Assembly: GCF_003790525.1 (NCBI RefSeq)
Contig: NZ_CP033635.1
Source of the DNA: Escherichia coli
GTDB taxonomy: Bacteria; Pseudomonadota; Gammaproteobacteria; Enterobacterales; Enterobacteriaceae
Strand: one strand, 5' to 3'
Length of the DNA stretch: 64,000 bases
Below, piece by piece: positions 30,372 to 47,807 of the stretch. The stretch's first letter is position 1. Every line of letters starts with the position of its first letter. The notes beneath the pieces are model-generated. The model searched no databases and was not told where the DNA came from. It was given only the letters and a program-made list of their open reading frames with translations. A program made the translations under genes and the position numbers.

Positions 30372-31379
30372 TTATCGGTAGCGTTTTTGTAGACTGGCAG
30401 GAAGATAACGCTGTAATGGGGATGGCGTTTCACCTTCAATCAGTTGCGAAATAAGTTCAAAGCAGTGAAAAGCAAGTTGGCGATTATCCTGTTGTATTGT
30501 GTCGATTCTTACCGAAAGTGAATCATACAAGTAATGATCATCAAAACTCGCCAGGTGGATTTTACTGTCGAGTAAATTATATTGGCTCATATAGCGCAGA
30601 ACGCCTTCCAGTAATCCACAAGCGGCAGTGAATAAGGCTTTAGGGGGACGTCCTAAACGAGCGCATAGCGCGGCAAACATTTCATAGCCTGAGCTCGGAT
30701 GATAATTACCGTGAATAATCCATTCAGGTTGTAGCGTTACTCCGGCTTGCTGCAAGCCTTGTGTAAATCCTTCCAGTCGATCGCGAGTCGGTGACAAACG
30801 GGGTTGTCCGCCCAGAAAATAGAATTCATCCGGGTGACTCCGTGCAATATCTGCCACCAGAGCGGCGGTGGGAGAAACAGAGTCAGTAATGACCAATGGC
30901 AATGTGCTGCCGTTCATGTGGCGATCGAACAACACAACAGGTAATTGCTCGCTAAGTTTTTGATAGTCATTATCATGCAGCATACTGGATGCGACGATTA
31001 ACCCATCAACCTGGCGGGCAATCATATTGTTCACCACCATTGTTTCCTGTGAAGGATTTTCATCAGTACAGGATATGAGGAGTTGGACTCCCGCTTCCCG
31101 ACACAATGTTTCCAGTTCATGGGAAAATACTGCAAATCCGTAGTTAGTGATTTCAGGAACGACGAGACCAATGGTGTGACTGCGGTTGTCCCGTAATGAG
31201 CGGGCATGAATGCTGGGCTGATAATGCTGCTGTTGGGCAATACTCAGCACACGCTCACGCGTTTCCTGCGCAACACGTAACTCTTTGCCACGACCATTGA
31301 GAACCAGACTGGCGGTTGCTTTCGACACTCCCGCCAGTTCAGCAATGTCTTTAATAGTAACGCGTTTGGTTTTTCTCAC
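30372..31379 (-). CDS. scrR: LacI-family sucrose operon repressor
   Basis: 335 aa; N-terminal HTH ([22 protein letters not shown]) plus periplasmic-binding-like fold; last gene of the scr cluster. Confidence 0.8.
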
Positions 31380-31404
31380 GACGAGGATCCGTAATTCAAA
31401 ACCC

Positions 31405-32814
31405 TCATTCTACCATGCAGGCGCGTAGCGACCAGTAGTGTAACGTGACGTCAGACTCGCCCTGTAATATCAGCGAAGCTGGATGATGGGGAAAATAACG
31501 ATTGCTCATTACGCCTTCGCCATTATTGATGAATATCTCTATGCTGGAACTGTCACAGAGAATCTTCAGTGACGTTACGCTTCCTCGCCAGTAACGAGTT
31601 AGTTTCTCTTGCCCTGCAAGGCTTTTCCTCTGTAGTTGAATACCATCGTCATTAAGATGCAGTGCCAGTGCGTTGCCAAAATTCAGATGTAGCTCGCCTG
31701 ATGGAATGATGTCCATTTCCAGACGTTCAATTGCGACAGGCGGCGCATGATCCGCTTTTCCTTGCCAGAAGTGTTCAGCTTCACGCAGTTGCGCGAGTTC
31801 CCTGATTGGCATCTGAAATAATTTTCCCTTCTGGAATGAGAGTTCGCGAAAACAGGTCATTTGATGCTGCCAATGATGCTTTCTGGTTGGTTGCAACATC
31901 TCTTCGCCATCAGGAACCCCCATCCAGCCGACCAGTAATCGTCGCCCGTCCGGGGCTTCCATCGTCTGTGGTGCATAGAATTCAAATCCCGCATCCAGCT
32001 CTGAGAAAGCGCCATGCGTAAATTTGCCTGTCTCGTAATCAAACTGTCCATGTAGCCAGGCGCAGGGATAGGTATTCAGATAGCGCTCATGTTCGCGCGC
32101 CATTCCCTGGGGGCAGCAGAGGAGAATGTATTCACCATCAAGGGCGAAAAGATCAGGACATTCCCACATGTATCCTGCGTTATCAATTTCATTCAGACCA
32201 TTACCAGCAATTTCTCCATGAAAAGACCAGGTATAGAGATCGACAGAGGAATACAGCAGCACTTTCCCCCGTTTCTCTTTATCTTGCGCGCCAAGCACCA
32301 TGTACCATCGGCTGTTGTGCTTCCAGACTTTTGGATCACGAACATGTCCGGTGTAACCATCAGGTAACGGTATGACAGGGCCTAATTTATCAAACCCGCC
32401 CTGGTTATTTTCGGTGGCCAGACATTGCCATGCCGTTCTGCTGCCATCATCAAACTTAACATTACCGGTATAGCAAAGTGTGAGAACGCCCTGATTATTA
32501 ACCGCGCTTCCTGAGTAACAACCATTACGGTCATACTCTTTATCGGGCATTAGCGCTAATGGTTCATGCTGCCAGTGCAATAAATCCGTCGAACTCCAGT
32601 GCCCCCAACATTTGTACTTATGATTACAATCCAATGGATTCCACTGATAAAACAGATGATAGCGGCCTCCTGACCAGCAAAAGCCATTTGGATCGTTCAT
32701 TAGTCCGGTGACGGGAGCGAGATGCCAACAAGGATAGTGGGCATCTGCCTGTGCTTTGGACTGACCTTTCATCACTGCCTGTAAAATCGCGGGCATTTGT
32801 GAAGGCATCGACAT
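31405..32814 (-). CDS. scrB: sucrose-6-phosphate hydrolase (GH32 invertase)
   Basis: 469 aa with GH32 NDPNG catalytic motif. Confidence 0.85.
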
Positions 32815-34184
32815 TACTCCTCGTCTGTTTTGTATTTGAGCAATAAAGAGAGACTAAAAGCGACAGCGAAAGCAATCACCATTCCAATAATATAATTAAC
32901 CAACGATGTTGGCTGAACGATTGCCATGCCGGGTATTGCGGTCAGACCAACGGCAGTCATATAAACGTGAACAGAGACAACCCAGGCACCGCCGGCAGCG
33001 CCACCAATTAAGGCCGCAATAAAAGGTTTAACAAAACGAAGGTTGATACCAAAAATAGCGGCTTCAGTAATCCCTAACATTGCGGAAAAAGCCGAGGGTA
33101 GGGTGATTGCTTTAATTTTTGTATCTTTGGTTTTAAACCATACCGCCAGACATGCACCGCCTTGCGCAACGTTTGCCATTGCCCAAATAGGCAGCAGGAA
33201 ATTAACACCGATTGCAGGGTTACCTAAAAGTCCTGCTTCAATTGCGTGGAAGCTATGATGAATACCCGTAATAACAATCGCTGAATATAGCCCGCCGAAT
33301 AACAACCCCGCTAACCAGCCAGCGTGTGCAATCAGCGTGCTGAGAACGAAAGAGATACCATCACCTAACGCTCGCCCTGCCGGACCAATAATTAAAAGAG
33401 CGATAAAGCCAGAAATGACGACAGTCAGAAATGGCGTCAGAATGAGATCCAGAGCATCAGGGATAAACCTGCGTAACTGTTTTTCCACTATGCTCATAAA
33501 CCATACTGCCAGAAGCACGGGGAAAACCGTTCCCTGATAGCCAATCATGGCGATTTCAAAACCGAAGAAGTTCATTGTCTGAAATCCCGCAGCAACGCCC
33601 CAGGCATTTGTGAGTGCCGGGTGAGTCAGAATCCCTCCTAATGTCGCGCCAAGATAAGGATTTCCACCAAATTCACGAGCAGCAGTAAAGCCAATCAGGA
33701 TGGGGAGAATAATAAATGCGGCTGAACTGCACATATCCAGCAGGATATAAATCGCATTATCGGCATTCACCCAGCCATATGTTTTCACCATTCCCAGAAG
33801 CCCCATTAATAAACCAGAAGCAACAATGGCAGGAATGATGGGGACAAAAATATTAGAAAGCAGCCGTGCTATTCGCTGAAAAGGATTGAGTTTTTGAGCG
33901 GCGAGTCGAGCGGTATCTGCTTTACTGGATTCGCTAATACCCGCAACCTGAATAAAGGCAGCATAGACTTTATTAACCACGCCGGTGCCAAAGATGATCT
34001 GCATTTGCCCTGAATTACGAAAACAACCTTTCACTCCATCAATCTGGCCAATGGCATGTTGATCGGCAAGTGTGTCGTCAACCAGTACCAGCCGTAGGCG
34101 AGTGGCGCAATGTGCTGCACTGGCGATGTTCTCCTTACCACCTAATAAAGGAAGCAACGATTGGGCGATTTTATCGAAATCCAT
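32814..34184 (-). CDS. scrA: PTS sucrose-specific EIIBC component
   Basis: 456 aa; N-terminal EIIB Cys motif (CATRLRL) followed by polytopic EIIC. Confidence 0.85.
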   Translation of the reverse strand: MDFDKIAQSLLPLLGGKENIASAAHCATRLRLVLVDDTLADQHAIGQIDGVKGCFRNSGQMQIIFGTGVVNKVYAAFIQVAGISESSKADTARLAAQKLNPFQRIARLLSNIFVPIIPAIVASGLLMGLLGMVKTYGWVNADNAIYILLDMCSSAAFIILPILIGFTAAREFGGNPYLGATLGGILTHPALTNAWGVAAGFQTMNFFGFEIAMIGYQGTVFPVLLAVWFMSIVEKQLRRFIPDALDLILTPFLTVVISGFIALLIIGPAGRALGDGISFVLSTLIAHAGWLAGLLFGGLYSAIVITGIHHSFHAIEAGLLGNPAIGVNFLLPIWAMANVAQGGACLAVWFKTKDTKIKAITLPSAFSAMLGITEAAIFGINLRFVKPFIAALIGGAAGGAWVVSVHVYMTAVGLTAIPGMAIVQPTSLVNYIIGMVIAFAVAFSLSLLLKYKTDEE

Positions 34185-34244
34185 ATAACCCTCTAATTCA
34201 TTGTTATTTCAGTAAAAGCCTCACATTCGTGAGGCTGTCTGGTA

Positions 34245-35786
<1,542 letters not shown>

Positions 35787-35805
35787 TTATAAAAATTGCT
35801 AAAAT

Positions 35806-35879
35806 GCTAAACCGGTTTAGGTGTTGATAATAAAGCTGACTTTTTAGCCAGAGCAATTATTTTCGCTAAACCGATTTAG
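35806..35879. promoter_or_regulatory. two palindromic operator-like sites (gctaaaccggtttag at 35806-35820; gctaaaccgatttag at 35865-35879) in the scrY promoter region
   Basis: near-perfect LacI-type palindromes TAAACCGGTTTA in the scrK-scrY intergenic region. Confidence 0.55.
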
Positions 35880-35929
35880 TAAATGTGACAGGCACGACAA
35901 ATCGGGTTACAGATACAACAGCAGGATCA

Positions 35930-36850
35930 CTATTGTGAAGGGAGATCGTGTTGTCGGGGTAAGGCGGTTATCGCGCCTTTAGCCGTGGTCGCCAGAGCAC
36001 CACAAATCTGAGCTTGTGCAATGATTCGTTCAAGCTGTCTGGTATTTGTTGGTATTCCAGAATCAGCCAGACCTGCAAGTAATCCAGCGACAAAAGCATC
36101 TCCTGCCCCGGTCGTATCGACGACAGAAACAGGTTTGGCGGGATAGTGGATAAACTGCCCCTGAAAATACACAAGTACGCCATTTTTTCCTTGTGTAATA
36201 AGCAATAAAGTCAACGAATAACGTTGTACTAATGAATATGCGCCTTGCTGAACCTGGCTTTCGCCACTGATGAATAGCAACTCTTCTTCGGACAATTTAG
36301 CGATATTCGCCAGCGAAAGTGCGCGATCAAGGTATTTCCTTAATAGCGCTTCACTCTGCCAGAGATCGCTGCGGATATTGGGATCAAAACTGATGTTTCC
36401 GCCAGCCTGACGTATTTTCTCCATAGCCAGAAATGCGGTACTTCGGGAAGGTTCTGCACTGAGCGCAATGGAACAAAGATGGAGCCATTCACCCGGCCCA
36501 AATGCAGGAAGGTCACCAGGTTGTAAAAAAAGATCGGCACTTGGGCGTACCATAAAGGTAAAGTTTCTTTCTCCTTGCTCATCAAGTCCTACAGCCACAA
36601 TTGAGGTGCGTTGTTGAGGATCAAGAGACATATAATGTGTATCAACATTTTCTGTACTCAGTGTCTGATACATAAAGCGACCGAAAGGATCATCGCCAAC
36701 TTTGCCAATAAAGGCACTTTTCCCCCCCAGCCTTGCGATACCGACTGCAACATTAGCAGGCGCCCCGCCAGGACACTGTAGTAGTCTCCCCTGGCTTTCG
36801 GGTAATAAATCAACAACCGCATCACCGAGTACCCATACTCTTGCGCTCAT
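35930..36850 (-). CDS. scrK: fructokinase (PfkB family)
   Basis: 306 aa with PfkB signature (DTTGAGDAF). Confidence 0.85.
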   Translation of the reverse strand: MSARVWVLGDAVVDLLPESQGRLLQCPGGAPANVAVGIARLGGKSAFIGKVGDDPFGRFMYQTLSTENVDTHYMSLDPQQRTSIVAVGLDEQGERNFTFMVRPSADLFLQPGDLPAFGPGEWLHLCSIALSAEPSRSTAFLAMEKIRQAGGNISFDPNIRSDLWQSEALLRKYLDRALSLANIAKLSEEELLFISGESQVQQGAYSLVQRYSLTLLLITQGKNGVLVYFQGQFIHYPAKPVSVVDTTGAGDAFVAGLLAGLADSGIPTNTRQLERIIAQAQICGALATTAKGAITALPRQHDLPSQ

Positions 36851-38519: not shown

Positions 38520-39797
38520 TTACTTGCTGCTAGCCATAGCAGGGGCGCTATCAGCAGTACGAATTTTTTGGAACAGCAAAAAGGTAAAGATGATCACCAT
38601 GGCAAGCGCCGCCATGCCCATTAGCCACATGTTGCGGTAGGCTTCTGCAGCGGGCAGGGTGTCTTGCCAGTGGCCGATAATCGGGTAAACGAAGACATCC
38701 GGCAGGAATCCAATCACCGAACAAATACCTACCGTGGTGCCCATAATGTAAGACGGTGTTCTCGCTTCGCCGGGGCAGGCCCAGTACAGTCCACGTGAGG
38801 CGTAGCAGGTGAATCCCAGTAGTAAAATCAGGCCAATCCCCATAGCGACCGATTGCGGGTTAGAGTTGGTAACAAGCAGGGCAGTCAGTGCCAGCAGGCC
38901 GATGATGGAAAGGATTTGAATTACGCGGGTAGGGGATTTCACTTTACTGTAGGTGGTGATAATGCCGCCAAGTGGACCACACAGCGCGCGGAAGATTTTG
39001 TTGATCACAATCCCCATGTAGCTCGCCGCCACCAGCGACATGCCGTACATTTCGGTGAGATAGTTGGTGGAGTAACTCAGAATGGCGTAGATGGTGAAGA
39101 CGCCAAAAATCACCATGCTGCAATACCAGGTGGTGCTGATGCGCAAAACAGCCAGGATGTCGCTAAGCTGGAATGATTGTTTTTCTTCGTTATTGGCACT
39201 GCGCAGGTTGTTGTTATCGCTAACAAAAAACCAGCACAGAATCCCCAACAAGATGTAAACCACACTATAGATGATAATGACCGTTTTCAGGCTGGCGCTG
39301 TCATCCGGTGCAAAGCGAGAAAAGACCCACATGGTAAACACCGCCAGCGACATTACACCGACGCCGCGCAGCCCTTCCATCCAGCCCATAATTTTCCCTT
39401 GCTCGCTATGATCGCCCAGCAACGATGCGGCTTTAATCGACACCGACCACAGCATTAAAATCGTCGTTATCGCAAAGGCAACCTGAATACAGAGCATTAC
39501 CCACAGCGGTGGATAAGTTGCCATTAACAGACCCAGTAATCCGGTAATGATCATCGCGGAAGTAATCATTTTGCGATGTGAGAATTTATCGGCAATAACG
39601 CCACTGGGCGCATAAAGAATAATAGCTGCAATACCAAAGGTACTCATTATTAAACCTATCTCGGTATTGCTGAATCCCATAAATTTCGCCATGGGAATTT
39701 GATAAATATAACGTAAATAAGCCAGGTCGAAACTAACGCCGCCGCTAAAACTAATTATCGCGAGGGTTATCCAACGGCGATATGAGTTGTGTTGCAT
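38520..39797 (-). CDS. yqcE: MFS transporter
   Basis: 425-aa polytopic MFS protein downstream of ygcE. Confidence 0.8.
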   Translation of the reverse strand: MQHNSYRRWITLAIISFSGGVSFDLAYLRYIYQIPMAKFMGFSNTEIGLIMSTFGIAAIILYAPSGVIADKFSHRKMITSAMIITGLLGLLMATYPPLWVMLCIQVAFAITTILMLWSVSIKAASLLGDHSEQGKIMGWMEGLRGVGVMSLAVFTMWVFSRFAPDDSASLKTVIIIYSVVYILLGILCWFFVSDNNNLRSANNEEKQSFQLSDILAVLRISTTWYCSMVIFGVFTIYAILSYSTNYLTEMYGMSLVAASYMGIVINKIFRALCGPLGGIITTYSKVKSPTRVIQILSIIGLLALTALLVTNSNPQSVAMGIGLILLLGFTCYASRGLYWACPGEARTPSYIMGTTVGICSVIGFLPDVFVYPIIGHWQDTLPAAEAYRNMWLMGMAALAMVIIFTFLLFQKIRTADSAPAMASSK

Positions 39798-40043
39798 ATC
39801 GTATTCCCATTTGTAATAGACAAAAAAAAGAGAAAAGTAAGCCGCCCTTTCAGGTGGATTACTTTTCTCAGGTCTCTAGTAATTGCAATAAGAAATAACA
39901 TGGAAAGCAGTGGTGTTGTGTGAGAGTAGTCACGCTTCTGCTTTTTAAAATTATTTGACAATACGAATATCACACTGTGATTACGATCACATTAGCGCTT
40001 ATGCCCTTATGCTAAAAATTATCTCCAGTTACCAGAGATAATG

Positions 40044-40090
40044 AGAAAGGTAACTTCCCTCTCGCGGGGGAAGTTACCTTTCTTTTTTTT
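40044..40090 (+). terminator. intrinsic-terminator-like hairpin plus T8 in the ygcW leader
   Basis: 17-bp stem gagaaaggtaacttccc / gggaagttacctttctt followed by tttttttt, ending 25 nt before the ygcW ATG. Confidence 0.5.
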
Positions 40091-40114
40091 GCTTTACGGA
40101 AATTGGAGTTAACT

Positions 40115-40900
40115 ATGTCAATCGAATCTCTCAATGCGTTCTCAATGGATTTTTTCTCCCTGAAAGGTAAAACAGCAATTGTTACCGGCGGGAATAGCGG
40201 TTTAGGCCAGGCATTTGCCATGGCGTTGGCCAAAGCTGGCGCAAATGTCTTTATCCCTAGCTTCGTCAAAGATAACGGCGAAACAAAGGAAATGATTGAA
40301 AAACAGGGTGTCGAAGTTGATTTTATGCAGGTGGATATCACCGCAGAAGGCGCGCCGCAGAAGATTATCGCTGCCTGCTGTGAGCGCTTCGGTACCGTAG
40401 ATATTCTGGTTAACAATGCCGGTATTTGTAAGCTGAATAAGGTGCTGGACTTTGGTCGTGCCGACTGGGACCCGATGATTGACGTGAACCTGACCGCCGC
40501 ATTCGAGTTAAGCTATGAAGCTGCAAAAATTATGATCCCGCAGAAAAGCGGTAAAATCATTAATATCTGTTCATTATTCTCTTACTTAGGTGGACAATGG
40601 TCACCTGCATATTCTGCCACTAAACATGCTCTTGCCGGATTCACCAAAGCTTATTGTGATGAACTAGGTCAATATAATATTCAGGTAAATGGTATTGCCC
40701 CTGGATATTACGCTACCGATATCACCCTGGCGACACGCAGTAATCCAGAAACCAATCAGCGCGTTCTTGATCATATTCCAGCAAACCGTTGGGGCGATAC
40801 TCAGGATTTAATGGGCACAGCCATATTTCTCGCAAGTCCGGCATCGAATTATGTCAACGGACATTTATTAGTGGTTGATGGCGGTTATTTAGTGCGCTAA
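40115..40900 (+). CDS. ygcW: short-chain dehydrogenase/reductase
   Basis: 261 aa from MSIESLN; Rossmann TGGNSGLG motif; GGAG RBS. Confidence 0.85.
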   Translation: MSIESLNAFSMDFFSLKGKTAIVTGGNSGLGQAFAMALAKAGANVFIPSFVKDNGETKEMIEKQGVEVDFMQVDITAEGAPQKIIAACCERFGTVDILVNNAGICKLNKVLDFGRADWDPMIDVNLTAAFELSYEAAKIMIPQKSGKIINICSLFSYLGGQWSPAYSATKHALAGFTKAYCDELGQYNIQVNGIAPGYYATDITLATRSNPETNQRVLDHIPANRWGDTQDLMGTAIFLASPASNYVNGHLLVVDGGYLVR

Positions 40901-42424: not shown

Positions 42425-42517
42425 TGTGTGAGGCAGCGTTCCGCGATGACGGGGCGTTGCCTTTTCGGCTTCTCAGGCGAGAAGCCGTTCTTATTACCGG
42501 ACAATGAAGGGGTAAAG

Positions 42518-43855
42518 ATGAACACTTCACCGGTGCGAATGGATGATTTACCACTTAACCGTTTTCACTGCCGCATTGCTGCGCTCACTTTCGGTGCGCA
42601 CCTGACCGACGGTTATGTCCTCGGCGTCATTGGTTACGCCATTATTCAGCTTACGCCCGCCATGCAACTGACGCCGTTTATGGCGGGAATGATTGGCGGC
42701 TCAGCACTCCTTGGTTTGTTTCTTGGCAGCCTGGTTCTTGGATGGATCTCCGACCATATTGGTCGGCAAAAAATCTTCACCTTCAGCTTTTTGCTGATTA
42801 CGCTCGCTTCGTTCTTGCAATTTTTTGCCACCACGCCAGAGCATCTTATTGGGCTGCGCATTTTGATCGGCATTGGTCTGGGAGGCGATTACTCAGTCGG
42901 TCACACCTTGCTGGCTGAATTTTCCCCGCGCCGCCATCGCGGTATTTTACTGGGCGCATTCAGCGTGGTGTGGACCGTAGGCTATGTGTTGGCAAGTATT
43001 GCCGGACATCACTTTATTTCCGAAAACCCGGAGGCCTGGCGCTGGCTGCTGGCATCAGCGGCGTTACCAGCCTTGCTGATTACGCTGCTACGTTGGGGCA
43101 CGCCGGAATCGCCACGCTGGCTACTGCGCCAGGGACGTTTTGCTGAAGCTCACGCTATTGTGCATCGCTATTTGGGGCCACATGTTTTACTGGGCGATGA
43201 AGTGGCAGCGGCGACCCATAAACACATCAAAACCTTGTTTTCTTCGCGCTACTGGCGACGCACGGCGTTTAACAGCGTCTTCTTTGTCTGCCTCGTAATC
43301 CCATGGTTTGTGATTTATACCTGGCTGCCGACCATCGCCCAGACTATTGGTCTGGAGGATGCGCTGACCGCCAGCCTGATGCTTAATGCGTTGTTAATTG
43401 TGGGCGCGCTGCTGGGATTAGTTCTGACGCACCTGCTGGCACATCGCAAGTTTTTGCTGGGAAGTTTTTTGCTGCTGGCGGCAACGCTGGTAGTGATGGC
43501 CTGTTTGCCTTCCGGCAGTTCATTAACGCTGCTGCTTTTTGTTCTCTTCAGCACCACCATTTCGGCAGTCAGTAATCTGGTGGGCATTTTGCCTGCGGAA
43601 AGTTTTCCTACTGACATTCGCTCGCTGGGCGTCGGTTTTGCCACCGCCATGAGTCGGTTGGGGGCGGCGGTAAGTACTGGCCTGCTGCCGTGGGTGCTGG
43701 CGCAGTGGGGAATGCAAGCCACCTTATTGCTCCTGGCGGCAGTGTTGTTGGTTGGTTTTGTTGTGACCTGGCTATGGGCACCAGAAACCAAAGCACTCCC
43801 GCTGGTGGCGGCGGGAAATGTAGGAGGTGCGAATGAACATTCTGTTAGCGTTTAA
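42518..43855 (+). CDS. ygcS: MFS sugar-porter-family transporter
   Basis: 445 aa from MNTSPVR; MFS sugar transporter signatures; track start 42428 is an extension. Confidence 0.8.
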   Translation: MNTSPVRMDDLPLNRFHCRIAALTFGAHLTDGYVLGVIGYAIIQLTPAMQLTPFMAGMIGGSALLGLFLGSLVLGWISDHIGRQKIFTFSFLLITLASFLQFFATTPEHLIGLRILIGIGLGGDYSVGHTLLAEFSPRRHRGILLGAFSVVWTVGYVLASIAGHHFISENPEAWRWLLASAALPALLITLLRWGTPESPRWLLRQGRFAEAHAIVHRYLGPHVLLGDEVAAATHKHIKTLFSSRYWRRTAFNSVFFVCLVIPWFVIYTWLPTIAQTIGLEDALTASLMLNALLIVGALLGLVLTHLLAHRKFLLGSFLLLAATLVVMACLPSGSSLTLLLFVLFSTTISAVSNLVGILPAESFPTDIRSLGVGFATAMSRLGAAVSTGLLPWVLAQWGMQATLLLLAAVLLVGFVVTWLWAPETKALPLVAAGNVGGANEHSVSV

Positions 43856-44612
43856 AGCCGAACCGGATGCCGGAATGCTGGCGGAAAAAGAGTGGCAGGC
43901 GGCGGCTCAGGGTAATATTGGACCAGATGTTTCGCTACTGCGAAGTTTACTCGGTGCTGATGAACAGGCTGCCGCCGCGCTGCTGTTGGCGCAGAGAAAA
44001 AATGGTACTCCGATGTCTTTAACCGCGTTGAGCATGGGGGATGAACGGGCGTTGCACTGGCTGCGCTATCTCATGGCTCTTGGGTTTGAGGAAGCTGTAT
44101 TGCTGGAGACGGCGGCAGATCTGCGCTTTGCGCCGGAATTTGTCGCTCGCCATATTGCCGAGTGGCAGCATCAGAATCCGCTGGATCTGATCATTACCGG
44201 CTGCCAAAGCAGCGAAGGACAGAATGGGCAAACGCCATTTTTGCTGGCGGAAATGCTGGGCTGGCCCTGTTTCACCCAGGTGGAGCGTTTCACACTCGAC
44301 GCGCCGTTTATCACCCTCGAACAGCGTACTGAAAATGGGGTGCGCTGTTGCCGGGTTCGCTTGCCTGCGGTGATTGCCGTGCGTCAGTGCGGTGAAGTGG
44401 CCTTGCCAGTACCGGGAATGCGCCAGCGAATGGCTGCGGGGAAAGCAGAAATTATCCGTAAAACTGTTGCTGTCGAATTGCCAGCGATGCAGTGTCTGCA
44501 ACTGGCAAGAGCAGAGCAACGACGCGGAGCGACGCTGATTGATGGGCAAACGGTAGCAGAAAAAGCGCAAAAGCTATGGCAGGACTATTTACGCCAAAGG
44601 ATGCAGCCATGA
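43833..44612 (+). CDS. ygcR: electron-transfer flavoprotein beta-subunit-like (FixA-like)
   Basis: 259 aa; AGGAGG RBS before ATG 43833; overlaps ygcS end. Confidence 0.75.
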   Translation: MNILLAFKAEPDAGMLAEKEWQAAAQGNIGPDVSLLRSLLGADEQAAAALLLAQRKNGTPMSLTALSMGDERALHWLRYLMALGFEEAVLLETAADLRFAPEFVARHIAEWQHQNPLDLIITGCQSSEGQNGQTPFLLAEMLGWPCFTQVERFTLDAPFITLEQRTENGVRCCRVRLPAVIAVRQCGEVALPVPGMRQRMAAGKAEIIRKTVAVELPAMQCLQLARAEQRRGATLIDGQTVAEKAQKLWQDYLRQRMQP

Positions 44613-45469
44613 ATATCGCCATTGTGACAATAAATCAGGAGAATGCCGCAATAGCGAGCTGGCTGGCAGAACAGGATTTCAGCGGTTGTACCCTGGCGCA
44701 CTGGCAGATTGAACCTCAGCCCGTAGTGGCGGAACAGGTGCTGGATGCGTTGGTGGAACAGTGGCAGCGAACGCCTGCGGACGTTGTTCTCTTTCCGCCG
44801 GGAACGTTTGGCGATGAACTGTCGACCCGGCTGGCCTGGCGTTTACATGGTGCAAGCATCTGCCAGGTGACTTCGTTAGATATTCCAACCGTAAGCGTGC
44901 GCAAATCCCACTGGGGAAATGCGTTGACGGCGACGCTGCAAACAGACAAACGCCCGCTATGCCTTTCGCTGGCACGTCAGGCGGGAGCAGATAAAAACGC
45001 CACGTTGTCCTCTGGGATGCAGCAACTGAACATTGTCCCCGGCGCGCTTCCCGACTGGCTGGTTAGCCTAGAAAACCTGAAAAATGTTACCCGCGACCCA
45101 TTAGCTGAAGCCAGACGGGTGCTGGTGGTGGGGCAGGGCGGAGAGGCAGATAACCAGGAAATCGCTATGCTGGCAGAAAAGCTGGGAGCCGAAGTGGGCT
45201 ACAGTCGGGCACGAGTGATGAACGGTGGCGTTGATGCCGAAAAAGTCATTGGTATTTCCGGACATCTGCTGGCACCTGAGGTGTGTATTGTTGTTGGTGC
45301 TTCCGGCGCAGCAGCGTTAATGGCGGGCGTACGCAATAGCAAGTTTGTGGTGGCGATTAATCATGACGCCAGCGCAGCGGTATTTTCACAGGCAGATGTT
45401 GGCGTGGTTGATGACTGGAAAGTGGTGCTGGAGGCACTGGTGACAAACATTCACGCAGATTGCCAATAA
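44609..45469 (+). CDS. ygcQ: electron-transfer flavoprotein alpha-subunit-like (FixB-like)
   Basis: 286 aa; ATGA overlap with ygcR stop. Confidence 0.75.
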   Translation: MNIAIVTINQENAAIASWLAEQDFSGCTLAHWQIEPQPVVAEQVLDALVEQWQRTPADVVLFPPGTFGDELSTRLAWRLHGASICQVTSLDIPTVSVRKSHWGNALTATLQTDKRPLCLSLARQAGADKNATLSSGMQQLNIVPGALPDWLVSLENLKNVTRDPLAEARRVLVVGQGGEADNQEIAMLAEKLGAEVGYSRARVMNGGVDAEKVIGISGHLLAPEVCIVVGASGAAALMAGVRNSKFVVAINHDASAAVFSQADVGVVDDWKVVLEALVTNIHADCQ

Positions 45470-45473
45470 CGTG

Positions 45474-45580
45474 TTGCCGGATGATCCTGCCTACGGTTCT
45501 GGCCTGGGGACTTGTAGGCCTGATAAGACGCGTCAAGCGTCGCATCAGGCGCTGAATGTCGGATGTGGCGTGCAGCCTAC
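45474..45580. repeat. REP/BIME cluster
   Basis: several REP units (gtaggcctgataagacgcgtcaagcgtcgcatcaggc etc.) between convergent ygcQ and ygcP. Confidence 0.75.
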
Positions 45581-45615
45581 AAATCACACAAATTCAATTC
45601 GTTACGATTATCCCG

Positions 45616-46191
45616 TTAAAGCAATTTTTTCGCCAACGTCCAGACCCCGGTATTCGTGGTGGAAAGCGCCACGACACCCGCGTTAATCGCATTACGCGCA
45701 TCTTCTTCATCGCACACCAGCCCGCCGGCAATCAGCGGTTGGCGGATTTTCTCCGTCACCCAGCCCAGCACTTTGGGCATACAGCCAGGCAGGATCTCAA
45801 TACAATCCGGATTCGATTGCGCAACTTGCTTATCAATGTTGTGAAACGAAATCGAATCAACAATAAACAGTCGATGAATACAGAAAAAACCTTCCGCTCT
45901 TGCTGCTTTCAGCATTGAGGCTTTGGTACTGATAATTCCGTCCGCCTCGGTCACCAGTTTCAAAAACTGAATCACCACTTCTTTATTTGACGCGCCTTCC
46001 AGCAAATCAACATGAATAAAAGCATATTTCCCGGCGTTCTTAATCTTTTTAACGATATTACTAATGGTGCAGATATTGCCGTACAACACGGAAATAAACT
46101 GGCATTCAGAGTCGATTGCCAGTTGCAGGCTGGCATTATCTTTAACGGCAGCAATCACCGGATTCTGGCGGAGCAGGTGTAAGAGGGGCAT
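45616..46191 (-). CDS. ygcP: GlpP-like glycerol-3-phosphate-responsive antiterminator family protein
   Basis: 191-aa ORF; family and position as in K-12. Confidence 0.7.
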   Translation of the reverse strand: MPLLHLLRQNPVIAAVKDNASLQLAIDSECQFISVLYGNICTISNIVKKIKNAGKYAFIHVDLLEGASNKEVVIQFLKLVTEADGIISTKASMLKAARAEGFFCIHRLFIVDSISFHNIDKQVAQSNPDCIEILPGCMPKVLGWVTEKIRQPLIAGGLVCDEEDARNAINAGVVALSTTNTGVWTLAKKLL

Positions 46192-46207: not shown

Positions 46208-46468
46208 TTATCCAAAACGGTAGGTGATGCCGAATCCGGAAGGTGGATAGCGCCACTGTTGTAGTGTTTTTTCGTCGCACAGCAAACGGCAGGTGCCACA
46301 CTCCAGGCAACTGCGATAGTCAATACGTAAGTCACCTTCTGGTGTGAGCGAAAAAAGACCAGCCGGACAAGCGTTAATCAACCATTGTACCGTCTGACGC
46401 TCAACGGAGTCAGCCGGAACAATGTGCGGCGCATCGGCAACGCGCCAGAGATTACGGGCTACAGACAT
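46208..46468 (-). CDS. ygcO: ferredoxin-like protein (FixX-like)
   Basis: about 86 aa with Cys cluster (CLECGTCRLLC). Confidence 0.7.
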   Translation of the reverse strand: MSVARNLWRVADAPHIVPADSVERQTVQWLINACPAGLFSLTPEGDLRIDYRSCLECGTCRLLCDEKTLQQWRYPPSGFGITYRFG

Positions 46469-47730
46469 CGCAGACTCCTGATAACATCGCCCGCCAGATG
46501 CCACAGGCCGTGACGACGTAAATGACGCCAGAATAACTGGTGCAGCGGTGGAACAGGTTTATCACCCTGATCCCATAAATCGCGGGAAATATCCTGCATT
46601 AACGCAGGCCACGCCCGATACCAGCCAGGGCGTTGCAAAAGCGCCGGAACATGCTGATAACGTTGTAGAACATCCCACAGCAGGCTGCGCTCTACGTTGT
46701 GATGATAAAGCGCAAACAGATTTTGCGGCTCGCGGTGCTGGCAGGCGCTTATCAGCGTTTGTGCCGCCGCCTGCGCGCCAGTTAGCGCCATATCCATGCC
46801 GCGCACGGAAATTCCGGTATTGACGCAACTGCGCAACGTATCGCCCACCAGCAGCCAGCCGTTACCGGCGTATTGCACCTGCATACTGTGCAAGCCACCT
46901 TCTGGCACCAGATGCGCACCATACTCCAGTGATTCCGTGTTTTTGATAAGCGGGCGCACTGCCGGATGCGTTTTAAAGCGAGCCAGCAGCTCGCTTGCCG
47001 GAACACGACTTTGCGTAAGTGAAGAGAGCGGGCAAACAATCCCTAACGAGAGCGTTTGTTGATTAGTATAAAGAAATGCGCCGCCGGGTAAGTCATCACA
47101 GATCCCGCCGCTGAACAGCAACGCTGCGCCTTCGTTATTCTCCAGATGAAAACGTTCTTCAATAGCGGATGTTTCCAGCGACAGCACTTCTTTGATCCCC
47201 AACGCCATCGCTTCGCCAGCAGGACGAGTCACTAACCCGTGACGTTCAGCCAGGACGCTGTTGGCACCTTCTGCCAGCACCACATAACGGGCGCGGAGAA
47301 TATCGTCACCACAAATGACACCACACACCCTGCCGTTTTCTTCATACAGCGCATCCACCGTCGCACCGGGGATGCATTCGACACCTTCTTTTTCGGCTTC
47401 GGCAACCAGCCACGGATCGAACCGTGCACGTAATACACTCCAGGATTCACCGCCGGGCTGTAAGCTGGAAAACGTCGTTGCGCCATCCGGCGTTAACAGG
47501 GAAAGGCTTTCGTGAGTGATGCGTCGTTCAAGAGGCGCGGTCAGATGAAATTGTGGGAGGAGTTCCGCGAGCGCCTGGGTATATAAACGCCCGCCGGAAA
47601 GATTTTTGCTGCCGGGGATTTCAGCGCGTTCCAGTAACAAAACGGATAAACCCGCTCGCGCGCAGCGTAACGCGCAAGCGGTGCCTGCAATACCGGCACC
47701 AATAATAATAATGTCGCAGTCGTCTTCCAT
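46459..47730 (-). CDS. ygcN: FAD-dependent oxidoreductase (FixC-like)
   Basis: about 423 aa; N-terminal GAGIAG dinucleotide-binding motif. Confidence 0.8.
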   Translation of the reverse strand: MEDDCDIIIIGAGIAGTACALRCARAGLSVLLLERAEIPGSKNLSGGRLYTQALAELLPQFHLTAPLERRITHESLSLLTPDGATTFSSLQPGGESWSVLRARFDPWLVAEAEKEGVECIPGATVDALYEENGRVCGVICGDDILRARYVVLAEGANSVLAERHGLVTRPAGEAMALGIKEVLSLETSAIEERFHLENNEGAALLFSGGICDDLPGGAFLYTNQQTLSLGIVCPLSSLTQSRVPASELLARFKTHPAVRPLIKNTESLEYGAHLVPEGGLHSMQVQYAGNGWLLVGDTLRSCVNTGISVRGMDMALTGAQAAAQTLISACQHREPQNLFALYHHNVERSLLWDVLQRYQHVPALLQRPGWYRAWPALMQDISRDLWDQGDKPVPPLHQLFWRHLRRHGLWHLAGDVIRSLRCL

Positions 47731-47807
47731 GTCATGCCCCAGATATCCAGAACACAACACCCTAACATAGCGTTACTTAAGGGAAATTGACCGCCGACAC
47801 ACTCTTA

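Follow-up and report, generated by a model that had tools for sequence, protein, structure and literature searches.

Two divergent leader terminators upstream of ygcW and yqcE in Escherichia coli and their probable control by YgcP

A strong hairpin followed by a run of eight T residues (T8) lies just 5' of the ygcW start codon in a 64,000-nucleotide (nt) stretch of the Escherichia coli genome (GCF_003790525.1, NZ_CP033635.1), which is referred to below as the window and in whose coordinates all positions are given. The gene on the other side of the spacer, yqcE (38520-39797), is encoded on the minus strand and is divergent from ygcW, as had been stated in an earlier note on this DNA (the original prediction), and the question arises what a terminator at this place might control. 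The original prediction offered a leader attenuator with an alternative structure, connected with the antiterminator-family gene ygcP, or a riboswitch-like element, or the 3' end of an unannotated small RNA (sRNA). The first of these is supported, and all that was tested of it fits: the ygcW and yqcE leaders are quite probably CRP-gated conditional terminators opened by YgcP-dependent antitermination, a reading in which we infer the binding of YgcP, its ligand and the positive direction of its action.

Terminated leader RNAs in the ygcW-yqcE spacer

The spacer (39798-40114) is 100% identical to that of E. coli SMS-3-5 and was found at 95-99% identity in 5046 of 5426 complete E. coli genomes. 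The hairpin before ygcW is a real transcription terminator within the ygcW leader RNA. Its arms and T8 were found where they had been described, and the '17-bp perfect stem' of the original prediction is a fair approximation of 16 consecutive Watson-Crick pairs (40044-40059/40068-40083), or 19 pairs with G-U/G-C extensions, closed by a CGCG loop; 24 nt separate the T8 (40083-40090) from the ATG at 40115. The RNA fold of this hairpin, -31 kcal/mol, was not equalled by any of 200 dinucleotide shuffles (-11.7 +/- 2.7 kcal/mol; z -7.2), and seven terminator-like sites were counted in a 700-nt region against 0.6 expected. A second hairpin with a T8, overlooked in the original prediction, occupies the minus strand of the same spacer (stem 39869-39830, T8 39829-39822) and ends 24 nt before the yqcE ATG; its fold is -22.3 kcal/mol (z -3.9). 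The leader RNAs and their parts are as follows (R1 is a covariance model described in the next section).

40023-40090, plus strand: ygcW leader RNA from the transcription start site (TSS) to the end of the U-tract, corresponding to K-12 ecr2774 (73 nt); R1 match 40022-40094, 87.8 bits
40043-40090, plus strand: intrinsic terminator of the ygcW leader, stem 40043-40061/40066-40084, U-tract 40083-40090
40105-40117, plus strand: ygcW Shine-Dalgarno sequence GGAG (40105-40108) and ATG (40115), 3' of the terminator, from the sequence and the RefSeq annotation
39822-39884, minus strand: yqcE leader RNA from the TSS (39884/39883) to the end of the U-tract, corresponding to K-12 ecr2775 (63 nt, northern-confirmed); R1 match 39820-39889, 54.7 bits
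39822-39869, minus strand: terminator of the yqcE leader, stem 39869-39859/39840-39830 with an upper helix, U-tract 39829-39822

Published K-12 data contain the transcripts that the original prediction had expected to end at the hairpin. Two short RNAs were reported in this spacer, ecr2774 of 73 nt on the ygcW strand and ecr2775 of 63 nt on the yqcE strand; both were given as 'potentially novel sRNAs', and ecr2775 was among five RNAs confirmed by northern blotting (Romero et al. 2014, PMC4681348). Class I TSSs from differential RNA sequencing (dRNA-seq) were listed in the same work at 2898384-2898388 (reverse) and 2898527-28 (forward) of U00096.2 (PMC4681348). With an offset to U00096.3 of +1978, which was verified on the gcvB and csrB TSSs, and after placement on the K-12 sequence (L083), these correspond to 40023-40027 for the ygcW leader and 39884-39883 for the yqcE leader. 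Thus, the ygcW transcript begins upstream of the hairpin, not downstream of 40090, as a leader terminator demands. The RNA-seq 3' boundaries of both leaders fall 1-5 nt beyond the U-tracts.

Term-seq 3' ends were mapped at 2900311 (minus strand) and 2900556 (plus strand), with Rho scores of 0.50 (ygcW) and 0.61 (yqcE), i.e. not Rho-dependent, and intrinsic terminator scores of 15.8 and 11.4, respectively; the 'regulatory element' column was left blank for both (Adams et al. 2021, PMC7815308), and the supplements of that paper list no TSS near the locus. Converted to the window, these ends are at 40078 on the ygcW side and at 39833 on the yqcE side. Both are located in the 3' arms of the hairpins, 11-13 nt short of the end of the U-tract, and RNA-seq coverage reaches the U-tract; the Term-seq ends presumably reflect trimming of the A/U-rich base back to the G/C-rich stem. 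The RNAs ecr2774 and ecr2775 are the two terminated leaders. Of the sRNA option, this leaves the 3' end of a short RNA at the hairpin; the RNA measures 73 nt rather than about 290 nt, and had been listed in 2014. The short RNAs, their 3' ends and a CRP site were thus already published, but as unexplained list entries, with no function, structure or regulator assigned to the RNAs.

A conserved hairpin that competes with the terminators

For comparison, 80 loci with YgcW orthologues were collected. The region 5' of ygcW is strikingly conserved among Escherichia, Citrobacter, Klebsiella, Raoultella, Serratia, Rahnella, Budvicia, Pantoea and Erwinia, and the same conservation was found in Firmicutes, e.g. 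Geosporobacter, Anaerosolibacter, Cohnella and Tissierellia. The consensus of the motif reads RTTACY - AGAGA nnn(n) GAGAAA - RGTAAY, followed by a variable hairpin top, TTRCYTTTCTC and T7-9. The RTTACY and RGTAAY segments pair to form a hairpin of 6-7 bp, designated P1, with a 14-15-nt loop that displays two GAGA repeats. The alternative structure sought by the original prediction in the ygcW leader is the helix 40027-40033/40049-40055, and both E. coli leaders carry P1:

40027-40055, plus strand: ygcW P1 hairpin, AGTTACC (40027-40033), 15-nt loop AGAGATAATGAGAAA (40034-40048), GGTAACT (40049-40055); GAGA repeats at 40035-40038 and 40043-40046
39858-39883, minus strand: yqcE P1 antiterminator hairpin, ATTACT (39883-39878), 14-nt loop AGAGACCTGAGAAA (39877-39864), AGTAAT (39863-39858); GAGA repeats at 39876-39873 and 39869-39866

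In both leaders, GAGAAA(A/G)GTAA opens the terminator stem, and the 5' arm of the terminator includes the 3' strand of P1 together with the second GAGA repeat. Since the P1 3' strand lies within the terminator 5' arm, P1 and the terminator are mutually exclusive.

The covariance model R1 was built from the ygc leaders, and copies were counted at E < 5e-6. It found 108 copies of the motif (101 distinct) in Enterobacterales and Firmicutes, with further copies in Vibrionaceae. Enterobacterales loci carry one copy before ygcW and one before the divergent yqcE, while Firmicute clusters carry one to three, located before the SDR-kinase operon, the FAD oxidase-ETF operon and BCCT transporter genes. 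Both mutually exclusive helices are supported by covariation. In 38 ygcW leaders, P1 positions pair in 98.9% of cases, with three pairs changed on both sides (slid controls 20-56%); in the 101 distinct copies, tested with P1 absent from the R1 structure, pairing is 94.1% (slid controls over both sets 16-56%), and two pairs covary, one being G:C in 66 copies vs A:U in 32, the other U:A in 70 vs C:G in 25. The terminator stem is 91-93% paired, with compensatory changes (93% in the ygcW leaders). A three-way covariation links alignment columns 12, 30 and 68, which read C:G:C in 19 sequences and U:A:U in 18.

The terminated fold is far more stable than the fold with P1: -32.4 vs -15.6 kcal/mol for ygcW and -22.3 vs -6.5 kcal/mol for yqcE. 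Therefore termination is the default, in agreement with the published RNAs, and readthrough needs a factor that stabilises P1. For the ygcW leader, P1 alone amounts to -6.1 kcal/mol. Another hairpin of minimum free energy (40018-40042, TTATCTC/GAGATAA) was rejected, as its 5' arm lies mostly upstream of the mapped TSS and the hairpin lacks conservation.

The only sense-orientation R1 matches in the window are the two leaders; its other matches are opposite-strand echoes of the same two hairpins. A BLAST search with the 73-nt motif gave a median of two places per E. coli genome and thus no indication of extra copies, with the limit that diverged copies would escape BLAST. The Rfam 15 scan of 39300-40600 (E up to 10) returned chance matches only, the best being 23 bits against a threshold of 100 bits. 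In one genome, that of Limnobaculum eriocheiris, the ygcW-side leader (L032:3092-3165) has the GAGAAAAGTAAC terminator hairpin with an A-run in place of the P1 5' strand, which looks like a degenerate or rearranged copy unable to antiterminate.

The start of the leaders is set by promoters that are probably under CRP control:

39976-39991: CRP site TGTGATTACGATCACA, centre 39983.5, class II position about 41.5 nt from the ygcW TSS
39919-39934: predicted CRP-like site TGTGAGAGTAGTCACG with a single mismatch to the consensus, its centre at 39926.5 lying about 42.5 nt away from the yqcE TSS
40010-40018, plus strand: candidate extended -10 element TGcTAAAAA of the ygcW leader promoter, read from the sequence, with a position that fits the TSS and the CRP centre

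TGTGATTACGATCACA is the sole perfect TGTGA-N6-TCACA in the window, and with 39.5-43.5 nt between its centre and the ygcW TSS it occupies the class II position. It was predicted as a CRP site in 2007, and CRP was bound there in vivo, in chromatin immunoprecipitation sequencing (ChIP-seq) of enterotoxigenic E. coli (PMC4287617), and in vitro, with a dissociation constant of 1.7 nM (PMC12871828). Across Enterobacterales, the best CRP-like site of the spacer is found 41.5-44.5 nt (mostly 43.5 nt) from the first P1 nucleotide of either leader; the ygcW spacing of 43.5 nt is kept in most Enterobacteriaceae loci, and on the yqcE side the best site is at 42.5-43.5 nt from the motif in many Enterobacterales loci. 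From this conserved spacing it follows that the transcript starts right at the RNA element. Besides the yqcE twin, both CRP sites and the conservation of the motif across phyla had escaped the original prediction.

YgcP as the candidate regulator, and the alternatives

The factor acting on P1 may be encoded in the same cluster:

45616-46191, minus strand: ygcP, proposed trans-acting antiterminator of the GlpP family, PF04309 over its full length (E 1.4e-62)

The family assignment made in the original prediction thus holds, the domain being G3P_antiterm. YgcP aligns with Bacillus subtilis GlpP over the full length (28% identity, E 3e-35). The solved structures of the PF04309 family are limited to two relatives of YgcP, 3KTS and 1VKF, both obtained without RNA, and no functional study was found in literature searches on YgcP, the ygc cluster and PF04309 proteins other than those of the Bacillus glp system. 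In Enterobacteriaceae genera, YgcP is 88-98% identical, and its neighbours YgcR and YgcQ (43833-45469) and YgcO and YgcN (46208-47730) are 40-75% identical in the same genomes; judged by these values, the putative regulator is under unusually strong constraint.

The motif and ygcP occur together. Among the 80 loci, which belong to related organisms and do not count as independent, 53 have both, four have the motif only, none has ygcP only, and 23 have neither; 13 of these 23 carry the same SDR-kinase-oxidase cluster. As for the four motif-only loci, two are on contigs that end before the expected position of ygcP, one is on a contig that begins 900 nt from the motif, and in the fourth, from Serratia microhaemolytica, a YgcP orthologue is encoded on another contig (P0050). 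In seven clusters lacking ygcP, R1 gave no match at E up to 1 with filters off. Ten genes of the cluster were compared, and ygcP alone separates, by its presence, motif-bearing from motif-less loci. Four loci picked solely via a YgcP homologue (Vibrio hannami, Photobacterium gaetbulicola, Thalassobacillus and Fodinisporobacter) all have the motif and all carry the catabolic cluster; their six R1 matches are in sense orientation directly 5' of SDR, kinase or MFS operons, with none elsewhere in 82 kb. No copy of the motif was found by R1 before ygcN-ygcO-ygcP (spacers 47731-47807, queD-ygcN, and 45470-45615, ygcQ-ygcP), and E. coli ygcP does not seem to regulate its own expression. In several Firmicutes and in Photobacterium, a copy of the motif directly follows ygcP.

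In B. subtilis, GlpP with glycerol-3-phosphate relieves the terminator in the glpD, glpFK and glpTQ leaders. The glpD and glpFK leaders were used for comparison, the glpD 5' untranslated region (UTR) being taken from PMC9604022 and the glpP-glpF-glpK-glpD locus being recovered via the exact GlpK sequence; a metagenome scan with an 18-mer of the glpD leader gave nine loci, one of which (L093) is a Bacillus glpD leader. For nascent glpD RNA the fold is GGUC[loop]GACC, and a helix UGUG...CACA was read by eye in glpFK. In both leaders, the short helix encloses two GAGA repeats 8-9 nt apart, and its 3' strand begins the 5' arm of the terminator. The pattern GAGA-N3-5-GAGA has only two matches in the 13.5-kb glp locus, in the glpD and glpFK leaders just 5' of the terminator arm, and six in the 64-kb window, two of which are the ygc leaders. 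The top R1 match in the glp locus (L094:11172-11233, 18.8 bits) is an ordinary terminator after a pgcA-like gene and not a glp leader; thus, R1 matches of low score owe that score to the generic terminator portion of the model.

According to the proposed mechanism, both divergent promoters would fire when CRP with cyclic AMP is present, and P1 would be transcribed first. If active YgcP is lacking, P1 would give way to pairing with the terminator 3' arm and transcription would stop at the U-tract, giving ecr2774 and ecr2775 (about 63-73 nt); this default stop would keep ygcW-ygcUSRQ and yqcE-ygcE off. Inducer-loaded YgcP would bind the GAGA-repeat loop of P1 and stabilise the hairpin, and P1 in its bound form would hold 13 of the 19 nt of the terminator 5' arm, so that the terminator would be blocked and the operons read through. 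If GlpK, glycerol-3-phosphate and GlpP are taken as the model, the inducer is probably what the YgcE kinase makes by phosphorylation.

Several points weigh against this mechanism. The P1 helix of yqcE is very weak on its own (-0.7 kcal/mol), the mapped yqcE TSS leaves zero spare nucleotides 5' of it, and the outermost P1 pair is unformed in 31 of the 101 copies. The link between YgcP and the leaders is drawn from co-occurrence, which is affected by shared ancestry, and from homology, with YgcP only 28% identical to B. subtilis GlpP. R1 aligns the glpD leader in register, though with a low score (14.6 bits, E 0.1), and gives no match for glpFK, the similarity of the RNA targets being limited to layout and GAGA repeats, and a nucleotide-level definition of the GlpP site on the glpD leader was not found in the literature examined.

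The alternative that survives best, and still a very unlikely one, is a protein-independent riboswitch, in which P1 with its purine-rich loop would bind a metabolite and prevent the terminator from forming. Some very small aptamers do exist, and the two-state terminator/antiterminator design, the strongly conserved unpaired segment and the location of the motif in 5' UTRs of catabolic and transporter genes would all suit such an element. However, it matches no Rfam family, as given above, and only one hairpin of 6-7 bp with a 14-15-nt loop is conserved, with no further helices or pseudoknot partners. The motif is also tied to loci or genomes that bear YgcP, being absent from homologous clusters without ygcP, and the same layout of GAGA repeats is seen in leaders known to need GlpP. 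Thus, 'riboswitch-like' was the weakest part of the original wording: the element is a single small hairpin found only with a protein regulator.

Next comes the possibility, also improbable, that the terminators are constitutive and leaky and merely damp two strong CRP promoters, with no specific antitermination. The short terminated RNAs do dominate under all published conditions (LB, M9 glucose), and the missing inducing condition speaks in the same direction, but the covarying P1, the invariant GAGA..GAGAAA loop and the association with ygcP would be left unexplained. It is hardly to be expected that ecr2774 and ecr2775 are primarily trans-acting sRNAs and the hairpin no more than their terminator. 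Both are discrete transcripts of high abundance (63-73 nt) that start at a TSS of their own and end in a strong terminator with a long U-tail, and they were listed as candidate sRNAs by Romero et al. (PMC4681348). Each of them, however, is on the same strand as an operon and 24 nt from its start codon, the conservation falls on the antiterminator and terminator pairings and not on a seed region, and in distant phyla a copy precedes each operon of the cluster, as is typical of a cis-regulator. No Hfq or RIL-seq evidence was met in the literature covered, in which the paper on sRNA prediction from RIL-seq is silent on these genes; a secondary role in trans may nevertheless exist. Leader-peptide attenuation by an upstream open reading frame that starts at ATG 40041 (MRKVTSLSRGKLPFFFLLYGNWS, then a stop), spans the terminator in 23 codons, stops just before the ygcW ATG and would control termination was rejected as extremely improbable, and a leader peptide is excluded as a general feature, because the ATG is present in 49 of the 101 distinct copies, lacks a good Shine-Dalgarno sequence and is absent from the E. 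coli yqcE leader, while the frame is not conserved, the length of the hairpin top varying by non-multiples of three, and no conserved peptide is seen.

The reading of the leaders as conditional terminators opened by YgcP may be extended. On balance, the motif may well represent an undescribed cross-phylum class of cis-regulatory RNA (in Enterobacterales, Vibrionaceae and several Firmicute lineages) that serves as the operator of a YgcP subfamily of GlpP antiterminators; recognition would occur via the two loop GAGA repeats 7-9 nt apart, a rule that would hold for the B. subtilis glp leaders too, and the cluster would be induced by a phosphorylated intermediate, though not by glycerol-3-phosphate. 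Mechanism and protein family have precedents, and the RNA motif matches no Rfam family. If this is true, it would be the first antitermination system of GlpP type in Proteobacteria, switching on a conserved uncharacterised pathway (SDR, FGGY kinase, FAD oxidase, ETF) whose substrate enters via MFS, BCCT or OpuA-type transporters. It would also account for two short orphan RNAs of high abundance and for two Term-seq 3' ends that had lacked an explanation, and give a testable function to YgcP, the product of an E. coli K-12 y-gene annotated by homology alone. The alignment of about 100 copies would provide the first comparative picture of a possible GlpP-family target, a hairpin loop with tandem GAGA, in a family whose RNA recognition is poorly understood. 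For the uncharacterised E. coli ygc catabolic cluster it offers a handle, since a leader reporter could be used to screen for the inducer and hence the substrate.

The genes of this cluster in the window are:

38520-39797, minus strand: yqcE, MFS transporter, left of the spacer and divergent from ygcW
left of the spacer with yqcE, minus strand: ygcE, FGGY kinase
40115-40900, plus strand: ygcW, SDR, with its ATG at 40115
right of ygcW, plus strand: ygcU, FAD-linked oxidase
42446-43855, plus strand: ygcS, MFS
43833-44612, plus strand: ygcR, ETF beta, with ygcQ (ETF alpha) next on the same strand, the pair spanning 43833-45469
beyond ygcQ, minus strand: ygcP, then ygcO and ygcN (46208-47730), after ygcWUSRQ

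The annotated coding regions of ygcS and ygcR overlap by 23 nt (43833-43855), and those of ygcR and ygcQ by 4 nt. As in SMS-3-5, a cluster of sucrose-type phosphotransferase system (PTS) genes is located at about 30372-36850, between ygcE and queE, with genes of a LacI-family regulator, sucrose-6-phosphate hydrolase, sucrose PTS IIBC, a carbohydrate porin and a sugar kinase; K-12 presumably lacks this cluster here, with ygcE followed by queE. The SDR-kinase-FAD oxidase(-ETF) clusters of Firmicutes and Vibrionaceae have BCCT (betaine/carnitine/choline family) or OpuA-type ABC transporters instead of the two MFS proteins of E. coli (L060:2866-6406, L067:7957-9507, L098:10715-12286, L099:8353-9990, L100:4387-5928, L101:14773-18053), and in L060 and L067 copies of the motif lie directly 5' of the BCCT genes. 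This hints at a quaternary-amine or osmolyte-like compound as the substrate of the cluster.

Comparison with known antitermination systems

The closest known system is that of GlpP. Like the glp leaders, the ygc leaders are associated with a PF04309 regulator; in both, the promoter is followed directly by a 5'-UTR intrinsic terminator, the 3' strand of a short hairpin forms part of the terminator 5' arm, and two GAGA repeats 7-9 nt apart lie just 5' of this arm or overlap it. In Firmicutes and Photobacterium, the ygc-type motif even lies between the regulator and the first regulated gene, as in glpP-glpFK. In contrast, the P1 stem RTTACY/RGTAAY is missing from the glp leaders, the ygc regulon (SDR, FGGY kinase, FAD oxidase, ETF and transporters) is not one of glycerol catabolism, and in the Gram-negative host the two ygc leaders diverge from each other and follow class II CRP promoters. 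Thus, the design and the recognition element are likely to be common to the ygc and glp leaders, judging from their sequences, and the sequence of the P1 stem to be specific for ygc.

HutP and TRAP are oligomeric proteins that read NAG/GAG triplets repeated along a leader RNA, and for them, too, short purine repeats at fixed spacing beside a leader terminator seem to be what is recognised. Both proteins have folds unrelated to that of YgcP; TRAP promotes termination, and HutP needs two clusters of at least three repeats, whereas the ygc motif has only two GAGA repeats, displayed in a hairpin loop.

In the BglG/SacY-RAT systems (E. coli bgl, B. subtilis sacB and others), a weak antiterminator hairpin shares sequence with the 5' arm of a strong leader terminator and is stabilised by a protein, and this is the best-known such case in E. 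coli. The same logic is proposed for the ygc leaders. The protein family, however, is unrelated (CAT-PRD domains, controlled by PTS phosphorylation), and RAT presumably differs from the ygc motif in sequence and structure; no gene of a CAT-PRD antiterminator was found in the 24-kb annotated neighbourhood or among the Pfam matches of the cluster proteins. Few cases of protein-mediated antitermination at intrinsic terminators are known in E. coli, and the ygc leaders would add one, layered on class II control by CRP.

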